Positions 9,746 to 18,197 of a stretch of 64,000 bases of DNA are shown in pieces (within the stretch, counting starts at the first letter, position 1; each line of letters opens with the position of its first letter). This DNA is from Mobula hypostoma (taxonomy: Eukaryota): positions 27,468,001 to 27,532,000 of the forward strand of contig NC_086108.1 of the NCBI RefSeq assembly GCF_963921235.1, given 5' to 3'. The translations under genes and the position numbers were made by a program. The notes below the pieces were generated by a model. The model had not been told where the DNA came from and ran no database searches. It saw only the letters and a program-made list of their open reading frames with translations.

Positions 9746-10608
9746 GCATATGGAATTGCCATGTGTTTGCAAAAGGACCCGCTTTGACTCTGGTCTGATC
9801 TGTTCTGTTAGAGTAGTTTGAATGTACCTTCATATATTTCTCTGGAGTAAAGTTGTGAATTTGAAATGACAGCAGTGAAATCAATCTGTGTTGAGCTGTC
9901 AGTTAGTCCATCCATCTTTAAAATTTGACTGTTCTCATTACTTGCTACAATGGTAGGTAGCAAGATTGCCACTCATCCAATTTGCAAAAGAGGACAATCA
10001 CACAAATATTAAAAAAAAGAAAACAAAAACACATGAAGCATTAACTGCAGAGTCCCTGAAAGTGAGTCCACAACTGCGGAGCCCGTTCAGCACTGAGACG
10101 AGTGAAGCTCGTCCAGGAGCCTAATGGCTGCAGGGAAACCACTGTTCTCAAACCTGGCAATGTGGGACACGAGGTTCTTGCACCTCCCACCCAACTGTTG
10201 TAGCGAGAAGAGAGAGAGACAGACCAATCAACAGCAGGCAGACAGTGCTGAACACTTGTTCATTTTCTACTCTCATCAACAACGATTTTAATCTTTCTTG
10301 ACGCTATAATTGGTGCGGAGTAATGGAGCCAACCTCGGATTCATATTCCATTATCAGGCCTCGACACTGTATCCACCCCCTGAGATGGCCATATCTGCAA
10401 TCTCGAAAGTCTACTTCACCAAGTCCCCTAGGAGATCGCAAGCCTACCAAATCACTTAGGGTTCAAAACTGCATCCATAAAATGGAAATTAGAGGCTACA
10501 GACTGCAGCGATTGCAGTTCAGAGGACCGGGGAATTAATATAGTTCACATAGATGTCATACAGATTTGAAAGGGATGATGGCAAAACAGGCCAATAGCAG
10601 ACATGGTA

Positions 10609-10792
10609 CAGGGATAGGCAACCTTAAGCACAGATTATTTTCTAGCATGCGCTATTCATTAATTTGAGGCAAAACATAACCAGATGTTTTTAAATGGATA
10701 CATTTCAAGTTTTTTATGGCATTTATCCGGCCCACCTTCCGCTCATTAATACGCGATCCGGCCCACAGAGGCAAAAAGGTTGCGGACCCCTG
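10609..10792. mobile_element. hAT/Charlie-like MITE
   Basis: Imperfect TIRs cagggataggcaacct / aggttgcggacccctg; two internal atccggcccac motifs; no TSD seen. Confidence 0.5.
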
Positions 10793-11967
10793 GAAGAAAC
10801 AGGGTAGTACTTACATTGTACTTTCGATTATAATGGAAATCCAGTGCCGGCAGATAAGAAGAAATTTAGCTTTAATGGAGGAGAGTTGATCATAGATAAG
10901 CAAACTCATAACGGAAAGATGTCCATAAATTAGAGCACTCATCTGCAGGGAAAATATGGGAAATGTCTCTTTGGTAAAGGAAGGCAAAGTCCCATCTGTC
11001 AAGGAGTTAGAGGAAACCCCTGTGGTGATATAGCAAAGATCAAATACTGTGAATAAAAGTGGAATAGTTACAAAATTGTGAAATCCACACGTAACTCATG
11101 TGAAATGAATGGGTCAGTGAAGGATCGTTGAGCTCTCATTTAAAGTGCTCCTCAGTGTACACTGTAACGGGACCTGAATAATCCAATTTGTTTGAAAAAC
11201 TCACCACTGCTGTACGTGAGATTTTCTTTGTGTGTGGTCCTGAAGTGTGTGATAATTAAGAGGGCAATTGGGTCCTTGGTGAAAGCAGATTCAGGGTGCA
11301 CAGCTCAAAATACACACAAGTTCCCCTGGCCAATTGTTAGTTCCTTTCTGAAGCACATAAACAAAGCTTGCCATTGGATGGACCTTAAACAGTTCAGTTA
11401 TCTGAATTGCAGTATTTTAGTTCCCTCCGGCCTGTTCTCATCAAACAGTACACCCCAAGAGAATCTGCCACAAAAACAGTCACAGGCTTTTAGACACGTT
11501 AAACTGCACTTGGCAATTTCAAATTAGTAGGAGCTCCTGAAAGTATTCTTTTTGTATAATTATCTTGCTTACAATATGTTCTTATGCAATGGCACTTAGT
11601 GGAACCAAAGAACACTCGAACTGAAAACTGCGGTGCCAGAGATTGGCTTCAACACGTGGACTGAATGAAATAGCTTTTGAAAGGCATAAACAATTGAATT
11701 GTTGAGACTGCACTCCATCTGGTTTCTGTATTAAGGAGACATAGTGAAAGGTACAAAAATTGGAAGAGATGCAGTGAGGGCAAATCGGAAGAAATGCAGT
11801 GAGCACACTTCCATCAAGAATGTTACAATGAGAGGCACATTGTATCAGGATTGTGGTATGAAGGGCCCAGCATTACTAGGAGTTTCATTGAGGAGACAAG
11901 TGTGCCAGGGTTTTATACAGTAGGACATTGCATATCAGGAATGTCATTCAACAAGCCTACTATCTCA

Positions 11968-12087
11968 GTGGTTAACATCGGATTAGAGTGTCCTGCATTT
12001 ATTAGCTCTGTTTTTCCAGCATTTTCTATATTTCCTTTTTATAACAAATACTGCATTGTAACTGCATTTCAAATATTCCTCTGTTTT
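11968..12087 (+). repeat. Flanking direct repeat B; partner at 15444-15565; candidate long TSD
   Basis: ggattagagtgtcctgcatttattagctc...cattgtaactgcatttc versus ggattacagtgtcctgtatgtattagctc...cattgtaactgcttttc. Confidence 0.85.
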
Positions 12088-12157
12088 ACATAGAACATAG
12101 AACAGTACAGCACAGTACAGGCCCTTCGGCCCACAATGTTGTGCGGACCCTCAAACC
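12088..12157 (-). mobile_element. 70 bp CR1-type 3' tail fragment
   Basis: catagaacatagaacagtacagcacagtacaggcccttcggcccaca; ttttaca on both sides. Confidence 0.7.
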
Positions 12158-12177
12158 TTTTACATTGCTTTTACATT

Positions 12178-12378
12178 GCTGGAAATCACGAGCCAATGGG
12201 AAGTCACTTGGCCACCACTGCTGACCCACCAACTGGAGAGTGTACTGGTAAATGGTCGGGACACTCTATGAAGGTTGGGCAACACCTGACGATATCTGCC
12301 CCTGCCCAAAGACTATGGTTACCTCATCAGGTAACTGAAGAGTTCATCCCGGTGTATGATGCAAGCGACATCTGGTTC
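12178..12378 (+). repeat. Terminal direct repeat A, 5' copy; partner at about 15249-15445
   Basis: Ungapped alignment at offset 3071; I counted 14 mismatches in the first 60 nt. Confidence 0.9.
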
Positions 12379-15300
12379 ACTAGAGACTTCCAGGAAAGAC
12401 TGGATGGCAATCAAGAAAGGTCAGTGACGCTGAAAATACTGCTGACCTCCAGGAAGACTGACATGGGCACACAAGGCTAGCAACCCTGCGTGTAGCACTC
12501 ATAAGAGGCCACCATACAAGCTATGGATGAACTAAATACTCAATGCTAAAGAGTGATTTGGCCCATTGAGAAGAAAAGGGATCTTAAACCATCATGGCAA
12601 CCGAACAGGAGGGAAAGGGGGCCTTGCCACCTGAGAATTGAGGTAAAGACCCTGAACAAACAATTCAAAAACAGTTCACCTGATGAAAAAGAAGGTGTCA
12701 AAGATCTAACCAGCAAACTGCAGAATCAGCTGCGAAAGTGAAGAAGGGAGAAAGAGAGGAGAGTGCAGTTTGTTAAAAACCCATTCAGGTTCAGCAGGGC
12801 ACTTCAAAGCCAGCAAAAATCTGGCACCCTAACCAGCTCGAAGCAGGAGGTGGAAGGATTTCTGTCGGAATCCCCATAGGAATCAGGGAATAGAATTCAA
12901 TCAAAAAGTCCCCCAACCAAGAGTTGAATGTGGCAGAGCCCACATAGCAGGAGGTCCAGGATATCAGCAAGAGAGCAAAGTCATCTGCTGCCACAGGACC
13001 ATGTGGTATACAAGGTATATAAGAAATGCCCAAAACTCCTCCGGAGGTTGTGGAAGATAATGAGGAAGATTTGGACCAAAGGCTTTATTGCACCAAGCAG
13101 GAGAATGGCTGAAAGATGCTTTGTTCCCAAAGAAGAAGATTAGTTCACAATTACCCAGTCTAGGACAATCTCCCTCCTTAGCATGGAGTGCAAGATATTC
13201 TTCTCAGTGCCTACGAGAAGATTGACCTCTTATATCAAAACAACACATCCATTCAGAAGGGTGGCATCCTGGGTCTGTTTGGGTGCCTTGAACACTCCTC
13301 AATAATCAGCCGATTGATCCGCGAGGCCAGGTAAAAGAAAGGTGATCTAACAGCTCTCTGGTTAGACCTAGCCAATGCCTAAGGATCAATTCCACATATC
13401 CTCATCCAGGTTGGCCTGGACCACTACCATATCCTGCCAGTGACACAAGACATGATCACCAGCTACCTAGGAGGATTCAAGCTATGCTTTACTTCAACCC
13501 ACTTTACAACCAGGTGGCAAGACTTTCAAAAACAGGTTATAATTGGCTGTACCATCTCCCACATCTTGTTTGTCATGGGTATGAACCTCCCCATATGAGC
13601 AGCAGCAAATATAATCCGAGGCCCAGTGTTGGAGCCCGGCAAATGACAACCTGCATGCGGGGTTTCATGGATGACATCACAGTAACCACTGTAACACATA
13701 TCCAAGCAAGATGGATATTAGAAACCCTGAACAATGTAGCTACGTGGGCTAGGATGATCTTCAATTTGAGTAAGTCCAGATGCATGGTGATCAAGAAGGT
13801 CAAGGTTACTAGCAAGTTCAGTCTTCAATTACAGGGAGAAGCCATTCCATCCATAGAGAACAACCCAGTAAAGTGTCTTGGAGAGTGGTTAAATATAGCA
13901 ATGATGGACAGCACCAACATCTGCGACACTGTAAAGCAATCTGAAGAGTGGCTGAAGAAGAACAACAAAACCGGATTCCCTGATCAATTTAAGACATAGC
14001 TGTACCAACATTGTCTTCTACCAAGGCTGCTCTGGCTTTTCATGATGTACATGTTCTTAATGATCACTGTAAAGGGCATCAAGAGGAAGGTCAACAAACA
14101 CCTGTGGAGGTGGCTGGGGATTTCCCCAAGTTTTTCTGCAGTGAGGCTCTACATAAGATCAGGCCAGCTACAACTCCCGCTATCATTGGTAGTGGAGGAA
14201 GTTCAAGGTGGCAAAGTGTAGAGTTGTGTTAACACCGTGAGGCTCTGATGACAAGCTAACAAACCAAACAGGAGTCACAACAAGATTGGGCCAAAAGTAG
14301 GTCACCAACTCGACCATAGAAAAGGCAATGAGCTGGTCACTGGCAGCCTGTGCCTGGGACAGCAAGGGCTCAGCTCTGCACATTTCCAATGATGGGGGAG
14401 TGCAAGGGGTTAGTGTGATATGGTCCACGCAGAGGTACAGAACTGTGAGTAAGAAGGGCAGGGATCAAAGGCAGTGGAGTCGGAGTCACAAGGCACCGGA
14501 GTCGGAGTCACAAGGCACCTGGGTGAAATGGGATCTTCCCAAGAGCAAGATCACTTGCTTTGAAGACTGCAGACCTTCCACATTTCCTTCCTTCTGTGTA
14601 TGACGCTCTCCCTACACCATCACAGCTACACACATGGGGGCTGAGAGAGCACCCTAACTGCAAGCTTTGTGGTCAGTGGGGTTCACTGTCAGGATGCAAA
14701 GCAGCTTTAACACAAGGACGGTAGAGATGGCACCACGACAAGGTCCTGCTGTCCCTTGCTGACACACTGGAGTAGGAGCGTTGTAAAAAGAGACCAGCTG
14801 GCATTGTGGCAAACAGGGCAGTCATTTTCATCGAGGAGAGTGCCACGCCAATCATATCAAAGATACCTAAATCCAAGATGCTGCAAACTGCCAAATCCTG
14901 AGAGATGAGGGTCGATGTGGGGAGGAAGATACAGTTCCCAGAGGTGGTGCATCATACTGTGTCCACCAAAGACAAGAAAATTGTCCTGGGGGGAGTTCAC
15001 AGTACCATGCAAGGAGGATCATGAGAGGAAGACCCTAAAGTACCAGTCTTTAGTCCAGGAGGACAAAGGATGGCAGACGTGGCTATTCCCTGTGGAGATT
15101 GGCTGTAGAGGGTTCCCAGCAAGGTCAGCACGGAGGTTGTTGTCTGTGCTGGGCCTTGATGAAAAGAGCAAGAACCAAGCAGCTCACAGGATAGGGGAGG
15201 AAGCAGAAAGAGCCTCTTACTGGATATAGAGCAGGCGAGAAGAGTTGAGCTGGAAGTCAGGAGCAGATGGACAGTGACTTGACTGCCACTGCTGACCTGC

Positions 15301-15443
15301 CAGCCGGAGAGTGTAGTGGTTAAGTGTCGAGTCACTTGATGAAGGTTGGGTACCATCTGATGACATCTGCTCCTGACCAAAGGCTACAGTTACCTCAACA
15401 GGTAACTGAAGAGAGCACCCCAGTCTATGAAGTAAGCAAATAT
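12178..15443 (+). mobile_element. Decayed Hero/NeSL-like non-LTR retrotransposon (RT plus restriction-like endonuclease)
   Basis: Frameshifted motifs: WLDLANA*GSIPH, RGFMDDITV (RT), CKLCG..SGC..LTQGR*RWHHDKVL (zinc-knuckle region), EFTVPCKE..ERKTLKY..WLFPVEIGCRGF (endonuclease); ORF stop at 15275-15277. Confidence 0.85.
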
Positions 15444-16193
15444 GTGATTAGCACTGGATTACAGTGTCCTGTATGTATTAGCTCGGTTTATCCAGCACCT
15501 TCTATAATATTTCCTTTTATACTAAGTACTACATTGTAACTGCTTTTCCAATATTTCCCTGTTTTGTTCTTCCATTGCTTCTTGTGTTCATTTGTTGCAC
15601 TGATATTTTCCGAGAGGCCCTGGGTGCTATTGCAATATCTTTTCTAATTCTCTGCTGTACCTAGATTCTGCTTTACTTTATGCTAGTCTAGTAATAGTTG
15701 TTCTGATAAATCAGGGCCACAGGCATTTACGAAGGCTTCTATTTGCTTTTACAGTAATCTGACATAGTTTTATTGCAGCTGTAGTGCTTTTTTTTGGTTA
15801 TAAAGTACTATGCATTTGTGTATATCAACTTCTCTTTGCTGTTAAATTGCTTGCTTCAGTTACATTTGTGTTTACCATTTGCTATTAAATTTGTACTTGC
15901 TCTGTTGATGGTAATAGACAGGGAATTGTGTTAATTTTCTGCATTTCCTATATGGTATTATTGTACTGTTTAGAACAATTACATTCATCATTGCACCAAC
16001 TGCTGCGCAGTTTATCTGTATCACTGCGATAACCTCTGCTGCCTATTGGCAGTTCAGTATTTCCCCCAGTAATAAGCTGCTGCGATGCTGTCTATTGCAA
16101 TATTTTTGGTGCTGCTTAACTGTTAGTAAACTACTTTTGTCTCGATTGTGTTGCAGGTCATGAATTACCATGCTTCAATATGTCTTGTGCTGC

Positions 16194-16600
16194 ATCATCA
16201 AGGACCCCCATGATCTAGACCATGCTCTCTTCTTACTGCAGGAGGCCCAGGATCCTTAAGTCCCACGCTGCCAGGTTCAAGAACAATTATGGCCCTGCAA
16301 ACATCAGGCTCCTGAACCAGCGTGGATAATTTTGCTCACTTCAAATCTGAACTGATTCCATTACCTATGGACTCACTTTCAAGGACTCGTGTTCACAGTA
16401 TTATTTATTTATTTTCTCATTTGTATAGCTTCTCTTCATTTTGGACATTGGTTGTTCGTCAGTCTTAGTTTGTGTAGTTTTTAATTGATTCTGTTGTATT
16501 TTGCTGTTCTACTGCGAATGCCTGCAAGAAAATGAATCTTAAGGTAGTATATAGTGACAAATACATATTTTGGTTATAAATACATACTTCAAAATTTGAG
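16194..16600 (+). mobile_element. Decayed Rex1/Babar-type 3' end
   Basis: IIKDPHDLDHALF..RFKNNYGPANIRLLN followed by a T-rich 3' UTR. Confidence 0.7.
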
Positions 16601-16624
16601 CATTATTTATATTGATGCAAAACT

Positions 16625-17365
16625 GAGCATTGCATTAGCACAAAGTAGATGTGATGAACTTCAAGGAGACTAAACCTGCACTGTTCCCTGTTACTATTCA
16701 TGGTGAGGACGTGGATGTGGTGAGGACCTACAAGTACCTGGGAATGCACCTGGATGACAGACCTGAGTGCAGCACCAACACAGAAGCTATGTACAAGAAG
16801 GGCCAGAGGCACTTCCACTTCCTGAGGAGTCTGAGGTCCTTTGTTGTATGCAGGCCTCTCCTTCACATGTTCTGTCAGTCTGTTGTCGCCAATATAGTCT
16901 TCTATGTGGTGGTGTGCTGGGGCAATGAAATCAACATGGGTGATGCCAACAGGCTCAATAAACTGATTAAAAAGGCTGGCTCTGTTACAGGAGTCAAACT
17001 GGACCCACTGGAGGCTGTGGTAGAACAAAGGACCCAAAGGAACAGCCTAGCAATTCTGGACAACGTTTCTCACCCTCTGTATGCTGCCTTGGCTGAACAG
17101 AGGAACAGTTTTAGTAATAGACTAAGACAAATGTGCTACTCCAAAGAGAGCCATATGAGGTCATTCTTACCCTTGGCTATTAGGCTCTATTATAAGTCAA
17201 CTTATAGCCAAGGAAGTGATGACTCCCTCCTGTTAGACTGTTTGAGCTAACTTATTTTTTATTCCTTCTTATATTTCTCCTAATATTGGTATATCTATGC
17301 ACTTATAATGCTACAGTGACACTGTCATTTTCTTTGGGTTCAATAAAGTATCTATCTATCTATAT
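16625..17365 (+). mobile_element. Rex1/Babar LINE 3' fragment (ORF 16651-17250)
   Basis: YKYLGMHLDD..KKGQRH.HFLRSLRSF..SHPL..RSFLPLAIRLY; caataaagta(tcta)n tail. Confidence 0.9.
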
Positions 17366-17524
17366 TTTGTGTCCTGCTATCTTATGATAGTTTGTGTGCT
17401 TTGTTCTAAATGTTCAGAATCAGAATCAGAATCAAGTTTGCTATCACCAGCATGTGACGTGAAATTTGTTAACTTAGCGGCAACAGTTCAATGCAATACC
17501 TAATCTAGCAGAGAGAAAAATATA

Positions 17525-18197
17525 GTTAGATTAGATTATTAGATTATGAGGACACTCAGTCCTCGTTTATTGTCATTTAGAAATGCATGCATTAAAAAAT
17601 GATACAATGTACCTCCGGTATGATATCACAGAAACACAGGACAGACCAAGACTAAATCTGACAAAAACCACATAATTATAACATATAGTTACAACAGTGC
17701 AAAGCAATACTGTAATTTGATAAGAGCCGACCATGGACACAGTAAAAAAAAAGTCTCAAAGTCCTGATAGCTCCAACATCTCACGCAGACGGTAGAAGGG
17801 GGAAACTCTCCCTGCCATGAGCTTCCAGCGCCGCAAACTTGTCGATGCAGCGTCCTGGAAGCACCCGACCACAGTCCGACTCTGAGTCCATCCGAAAACT
17901 TTGAGCCTCCCACCAGCCCTCCGACACAGAGCACTGAGCACCATCCAGACTTTGACCATGACCCCAGCAGCCAAGCAACAGGCAAAGCTGAGGATTCGGG
18001 GCCTTCCCCTCCAGAGATTTCAGATCACACAGTAGCAGCAGCAGCGAAGCAGGCATTTCAGAAGTTTCACCAGGTGTTCCTCTGTGCTCTCATGTCTGCC
18101 TCCATCAAATCAGAATTGTGCACGGCCTCCTACTTGACAGATTACAGATATTCATCACCGGAGAGGCCGCGTGCACTGCATCGCACCACCATCTTCT
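17525..18197 (-). mobile_element. Non-coding retroposon inserted in the Rex1 3' UTR
   Basis: (ttaga)n tail and tttattg at the left, caccatctt (aagatggtg on minus strand) at the right; Rex1 UTR resumes afterwards. Confidence 0.6.

Follow-up and report, generated by a model that had tools for sequence, protein, structure and literature searches.

The 64,000-nucleotide stretch of Mobula hypostoma DNA analyzed here, which we call the window, contains a dead copy of a Hero-like retroelement (Table 1). Two direct repeats of 189 nt each, 79% identical to each other, flank a decayed open reading frame (ORF) that bears a reverse transcriptase (RT), whose RVT_1 match is weak and below the cut-off. The tail-to-head junction of the 5′ repeat recurs in other genomic copies, and the repeats are spaced by 3071 nt, as against about 3.7 kb in a younger subfamily. 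The conserved hairpin close to the 3′ end possibly has a role in recognition by the RT.

The element is enclosed by a flanking duplication, the copies of which are 82-83% identical and of an age similar to that of the terminal repeats; it may be an unusually long target-site duplication. A genome search with it yielded no further copy, and the same search also missed the local second copy. The roughly 90 bp between the left flanking copy and the element resemble, by eye, what is presumably a fragment of another repeat. Inverted arms about 6 kb apart (10050-10187 and 16241-16388, 74-95%) bracket the region, and downstream of it a 203-aa frame (16639-17250) is similar to the C-terminus of another LINE. 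The start of the 5′ UTR (12370-12470) carries repeated units with GGAAAGAC/GGAGAGAC, which are conserved in distant relatives, standing just after the 3′ end in L065, L066, L068, L069, L074, L077, L086, L120 and L127. They possibly represent a structured element for cap-independent translation.

Table 1. The Hero-like element of the window, its flanks and the predicted folds of its two terminal repeats
Feature	Positions	Strand	Remarks
Flanking duplication, left copy	11968..12087	+	about 120 bp
5′ terminal repeat	12178..12366	+	partial upstream duplicate of the 3′ end of the element itself, joined tail-to-head onto the 5′ UTR
5′ candidate ribozyme copy, decayed	12185..12306	+	predicted cut after 12244 (GUA)
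5′ copy, P5	12185-98/12293-306	+	8 of 14 paired
5′ copy, P6 hairpin	12199-222	+	
5′ copy, stem II	12223-27/12253-57	+	with G10.1-C11.1
5′ copy, P0 (putative I-II contact helix)	12229-34/12273-78	+	
5′ copy, kink-turn-like loop	12235-37/12267-72	+	
5′ copy, stem III	12238-43/12261-66	+	
5′ copy, stem I	12245-49/12281-85	+	3 of 5 paired
5′ copy, core	12286-92 (CUGACGA)	+	G12-A15.1 reads GGGA (broken)
5′ UTR and decayed single ORF	12367..15277	+	RT, CCHC knuckle, restriction-like endonuclease
3′ terminal repeat	15249..15437	+	ORF end, 3′ UTR, element's 3′ end
3′ candidate ribozyme copy, decayed	15256..15377	+	predicted cut after 15315 (GUA)
3′ copy, P5	15256-69/15364-77	+	14 of 14 paired
3′ copy, P6	15270-93	+	
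Stop codon TGA	15275-77	+	inside P6 strand
3′ copy, stem II	15294-98/15324-28	+	4 of 5 paired
3′ copy, P0	15300-05/15344-49	+	
3′ copy, kink-turn-like loop	15306-08/15338-43	+	
3′ copy, stem III	15309-14/15332-37	+	
3′ copy, stem I	15316-20/15352-56	+	5 of 5 paired, one G-U
3′ copy, core	15357-63 (CUGAUGA)	+	G12-A15.1 reads GAGT (broken)
Hairpin near the element's 3′ end	15389..15406	+	conserved in the family
Flanking duplication, right copy	15444..15565	+	begins 7 nt past the element's 3′ end

The repeat has at least 1290 candidates in its own genome. A 502-aa frame read from a less decayed genomic copy is homologous to RT proteins that occur in fishes, amphioxus and bivalves and are about 1100 aa long. 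The single ORF of the element comprises the RT, a CCHC knuckle and a C-terminal restriction-like endonuclease, which we take to be marked by a PD...ELTVPWE motif seen by eye. Over 418 aa, the own-genome protein is 47% identical to the Tetraodon polyprotein Q7T1J8, presumably Zebulon/HEROTn of the Hero clade. Zebulon, reportedly described by Bouneau et al. in 2003, is said to resemble our element also in having partially tandem, LTR-like ends; to our knowledge, no ribozyme has been described in it. In the sections of PMC7650587 available to us, HEROTn is placed in the Hero clade. A quick tree of C-termini, computed without named Repbase HERO sequences or outgroups and excluding L135 and L137 as too short, nests Q7T1J8 among carriers of the RNA motif described below, and these carriers spread across the whole protein tree.

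Both terminal repeats contain a decayed copy of a hammerhead-like RNA. An earlier note had proposed a pseudoknotted hammerhead core in non-circular order in both of them, which our analysis bears out. Its component strings lie where it placed them: AGAGTGTA at 12237-12244, ACACTCT at 12261-12267 and CTGACGA at 12286-12292 in the 5′ copy, and GTA followed by GTGGT (15316-15320), ACCAT (15352-15356) and CTGATGA (15357-15363) in the 3′ copy. The same is true of the broken GAAA site, which reads GGGA (12258-61) and GAGT (15329-32), so that neither copy is complete. The extent given for the motif, 12237..12300, misses its start, about 50 nt farther upstream at 12185. Helix II, described as not evident, does exist and uses an upstream strand (12223-27 with 12253-57). 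Of the 7-bp helix III, the outer A-U pair more likely belongs to a kink-turn-like loop. An Rfam scan of window positions 10000-18000 matched no ribozyme family.

The sequence held by the majority of 29 genomic and the two window copies comprises GUA, a 5-bp stem I, a 3-nt linker, GAAA-C and CUGA(U/C)GA. A consensus lacking GAAA had been named as grounds for abandoning the motif; in 76 distinct full-span copies from the own genome, GAAA, NUH and CUGANGA are each the majority state. G12 is kept in 57 of them and replaced by A in 18, A13 is kept in 73, A14 and A15.1 in 70 each, U16.1 in 74, and the six fixed CUGANGA bases in 63-75 each. The main losses affect C11.1/G12 and G8 and, like the G12 to A changes, are consistent with CpG decay. 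Every core base is intact in only 12 of the 76, and the two window copies are ordinary dead copies of the family.

To follow the motif beyond this genome, we scanned metagenome contigs with an alignment of the C-terminal region and found 271 relatives, of which 79 loci were retained. Viral contigs contained no relatives, and three short matches in prokaryote contigs were left out of the analysis. Contigs from sequencing runs show the family and its fixed 3′ end in relatives. A descriptor that requires at least 3 bp in each of stems I and III, and the core elements in the order site-GAAA-CUGANGA, matched 44 of the 79 RT-endonuclease elements, in the 3′ UTR just past the stop codon. Reverse complements, the upstream ORF and each of 20 rounds of shuffling gave no match at all. 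By eye, 14 further relatives hold the motif with a defect in core or stem, 13 have a 3′ UTR that is cut off or ambiguous, and eight with a sufficiently long 3′ UTR lack it (L110, L114, L118, L119, L124, L128, L134, L139). The 3′ UTRs of these eight are repeat-rich or look structured and, again by eye, at least L118 and L128/L134 run on into a 5′-UTR-like stretch even without a hammerhead. An Rfam scan of 17 loci matched neither a ribozyme family nor a hammerhead model. Rfam gave no ribozyme in six scanned relatives lacking the hammerhead, which may therefore hold other, undescribed ribozymes.

Dereplication at <80% identity reduced the 44 carriers to 30 loci. Their cleavage triplets are GUC (12), GUU (10), GUA (5), AUA (2) and GUG (1), so that 29 of 30 keep the NUH rule, and stems I and III, both part of the selection rule, show many pair types. 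Compensatory changes in these two stems, proposed earlier as a check on the motif, thus occur throughout the family together with GAAA, CUGANGA and NUH. Swap tests of stems I and III are biased, because at least 3 bp of each is required for selection.

Along the RNA, the strands follow the order P5, P6, II, P0, III-UH-I, II′-GAAA-III′, P0′, I′-CUGANGA-P5′. In the 30 loci, stem II formed with the upstream strand, which sits about 20 nt 5′ of the cut, has a native run of 4.50, compared to 2.55 when swapped (0 of 20,000 permutations). The canonical G10.1-C11.1 pair, also outside the selection rule, is present in 27 of 30. P5 is a long helix between the bases after A9 and a strand farther upstream (8.55 vs 4.58 swapped, 0 of 20,000), and P6 is a hairpin between the upstream P5 strand and G10.1. 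In 18 of 30 loci the hairpin abuts both of these without a linker, a number that falls to 0-1 when the junction is shifted. On this comparative evidence, P5 and P6 form a linker-free four-way junction inserted between A9 and G10.1. The standard alternative, a stem II directly after CUGANGA with 0-1 inserted base, was also tried and rejected (1.24 vs 1.18 swapped, 7730 of 20,000).

P0 pairs the strand after stem II with the one that precedes stem I; the 22 loci that allowed its registration gave 3.91 vs 2.62 of 5 pairs (0 of 20,000). By analogy to the type SGC hammerheads discussed below, it would be a contact between stems I and II. P0 and stem III are joined by a loop that in 18 of 30 loci consists of a 3-nt bulge and tandem G•A pairs. 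The kink-turn consensus is a bulge of about 3 nt, followed by tandem G•A/A•G pairs, between two helices. The GA/GA core of these 18 loci has a helix of at least 3 bp beyond it in 13; the core is also present in both window copies and is absent from several lineages.

In a MAFFT alignment of 20 rows (the two window copies and 18 of the 30 loci), 89.5% of cells are paired, compared to 34-45% in slid controls, and 32 of 37 pairs show two-sided changes; as these 18 loci were chosen for similar length, the anchored tests on 30 loci are the fairer ones. Folding of single strands, in which pseudoknots are not possible, recovered P5 and P6 in all four sequences from outside the window, and stem III with P0 in L065 and L083. 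From this comparative evidence we conclude that the motif is real at the level of the family: a conserved, covarying 3′-UTR RNA with every base of the hammerhead core. In active elements, this fold very probably self-cleaves after NUH.

As the earlier note recognized, the order of the core lies outside types I, II and III and needs a pseudoknot; the order S-G-C as such, however, was already published as type SGC (PMC10085705). This type was validated by Eckert et al. (2023), who in the sections available to us report it only in metatranscriptomes and name no SGC RNA in the genomes of known organisms (PMC10085705). The Hero motif resembles SGC/HRIMA-1, as far as described there, in the order site, GAAA, CUGANGA with at least two pseudoknots, in the short linker from stem I to the GAAA-side strand of stem II, and in a contact helix whose strands adjoin the 3′ strand of stem I and the G10.1 strand of stem II. 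The folds differ in that stem II directly follows CUGANGA in SGC, whereas P5 and P6 interrupt the Hero chain at A9/G10.1, and its contact helix is joined to stem III via the kink-turn-like loop; the words 'kink' and 'k-turn' do not occur in the portion of the PMC10085705 supplement at hand. In the SGC-1 and SGC-2 oligonucleotides, A9 is followed by a single additional U, and the contact helix is positioned like P0 (PMC10085705, same sections), for which reason the Hero motif looks like an SGC circle reopened at A9/G10.1.

The count of six possible orders arises because PMC10085705, in its accessible text, assumes that CUGANGA stays attached to stem II. Its block C allows no more than 1-2 inserted bases between A9 and stem II, and its search pattern demands CUGAUGA(U)G and then stem II. 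In the Hero motif, helices P5 and P6 intervene at this point, and its wiring therefore falls outside the six permutations as set out there. The required attachment would also explain why Hero elements in RefSeq went unreported. Core insertions catalogued by Perreault (2011, PMC3088659) are, in the sections available, of only one or two bases, and those of Forgia (2023, PMC10162972) describe nothing resembling the Hero wiring. Within the literature we searched, partly as excerpts, no insertion at A9/G10.1 has a tested natural precedent, and no publication on Hero/Zebulon hammerheads or on such wiring was found in a search that most subscription papers lay outside.

The ends of genomic insertions bear on what the RNA may do. 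We examined 136 loci, of which 114 have the 5′ UTR start and represent 79 distinct insertions after merging of duplicates; three reference loci were censored at edges, and two queries favored copies that include a portion of the repeat. The tail-to-head junction does not vary among genomic copies, and several distant relatives show it as well. Of 20 young loci fetched, 16 are complete, and all 16 end at the same 3′ base without poly(A). A uniform target-site duplication was rejected, as only two of these (L255, L260) show one, of 35-40 bp and within 400 nt. Past the fixed 3′ end, T follows in 12 of the 16, TA in seven and TAA in five; these match the first bases of the tail-to-head junction, which suggests that priming occurs through microhomology on a continuing template.

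At their 5′ ends, 43 of the 79 junction-bearing insertions extend upstream past the predicted cut, some by more than 1.2 kb and with a roughly steady drop-off of 0.002-0.004 per nt, 31 begin more than 5 nt 3′ of it, and five begin at 0 to +4. The five ends at the cut exceed the 1.06 expected (P=0.005; P=0.04 with a ±5 window), but this excess is weak, as it is matched by an equally large cluster at +41 to +49. We therefore discarded a sharp pile-up at the cut as decisive proof, the signal being neither strong nor unique. The +41 to +49 truncations lie at or just after CUGANGA, where the long P5 strand starts, and possibly reflect stalling of the RT at the junction. The 5′ and 3′ repeats of the same insertion share 16 derived variants, compared to 5.9 expected from repeats of different insertions (2 of 20,000). 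In only 6 of 16 insertions, however, does the own 3′ repeat rank first, and gene conversion or a shared source lineage could also explain these variants.

Both the end pattern and the shared variants fit a single RT pass running through the junction of a self-cut, closed RNA. In such a model, cleavage of one repeat and of the next would release an RNA of unit length, which is plausible and fits the insertion ends. Since P5, II, P0 and III link both cleavage products, they would keep this RNA clamped in a circle, either nicked or ligated, and could thus hold the monomer ends together for ligation or an RT jump. Target-primed reverse transcription would then always begin at one internal position, about 125 nt 3′ of the cut, and proceed across the junction until the RT falls off at random, leaving repeats of any length. 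Only insertions in which the 5′ repeat extends to about 60 nt 5′ of the cut would have two complete ribozymes and could therefore release a monomer again. To this full sequence of events, in which self-cleaving repeats yield a unit-length RNA, this RNA becomes circular and the RT copies it for more than one round, we incline slightly.

Alternatively, the ribozyme may act in a linear manner comparable to that of R2: only the 5′ copy would cut, separating the RNA from a read-through transcript of the host, the 3′ copy would be silenced by an alternative fold or by ribosomes ending at the stop codon inside P6, and the repeats would stem from multimeric transcripts or RT template jumps without a covalent circle. 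The R2 precedent (PMC7650587, in the sections available), the 5′ ends at 0 to +4 of the cut, the position of the stop codon in the P5/P6 strands, and the nested folds of L254 and L069, which favor stem II over stem III and P0, agree with this. A template starting at the cut, however, cannot yield the 43 of 79 extensions past it without a jump or ligation, and a cut in the 3′ copy would lose the last 125 nt, which every complete insertion retains, so that we regard this explanation as unlikely.

More improbable still is that the RNA, derived from a hammerhead, is non-catalytic in cis and instead provides the ORF protein with a site for binding or priming, or acts as an element in the termination of translation. 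Such elements bind their own protein near the 3′ end, and the fold overlaps the stop codon, adjoins the 3′ end and has its core split at A9/G10.1. Yet selection for catalysis would be expected to preserve the core and leave the stems free to covary, and this is what is seen: all catalytic-core bases are retained, as are NUH (29 of 30) and G10.1-C11.1 (27 of 30), alongside freely covarying stems. Chance resemblance or an alignment artefact, which the incomplete window copies and the absence of a match to any Rfam hammerhead model might suggest, is refuted by the controls (44 of 79 vs 0 in three kinds) and by four helices outside the selection rule that prove sequence-specific, and we give it practically no credence.

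The nearest parallels to self-cleavage in the repeats are the hammerheads in pseudo-LTRs of Penelope-like elements (PLEs) and in retrozymes, which likewise sit in terminal or tandem repeats of retroelements and for which unit-length and circular RNA has been proposed as template (bioRxiv 10.64898/2026.07.22.740005 and PMC7229834, in the parts available). Those are type I or III hammerheads in GIY-YIG elements or non-coding retrozymes, whereas the Hero element is autonomous, encodes its own RT and restriction-like endonuclease, and differs in wiring; the retrozyme definition as non-coding and non-autonomous does not describe it. The word 'Hero' does not occur in the available text of bioRxiv 10.64898/2026.07.22.740005. 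The HDV-like ribozymes of R2 and other non-LTR elements, as described in the accessible sections of PMC7650587 and PMC13725137, are self-cleaving RNAs that process the transcript of a non-LTR retrotransposon, as is proposed for the Hero motif, but they belong to another class and lie at the 5′ end only, in contrast to the 3′-UTR location with duplication at the 5′ end seen here.

The broadest reading combines a widespread, autonomous LINE-type clade that would transpose via ribozyme-made circular RNA with a seventh natural hammerhead wiring, split by a four-way junction at A9/G10.1, bent by a kink-turn and with four helices clamping the ends; we hold it tentatively, doubt slightly outweighing belief. 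If true, it would establish a hammerhead architecture not covered by the six permutations considered possible and, as far as our literature search shows, the first non-circularly permuted hammerhead in animal genomes, in a motif that is abundant in this genome but was missed by Rfam models and published search patterns. With the motif, the LTR-like and partly tandem ends of Hero/Zebulon elements gain a testable explanation. Circular-RNA retrotransposition would then extend from Penelope elements and retrozymes to a LINE clade with a restriction-like endonuclease, whose members are relatives of the R2 elements now engineered for gene insertion.
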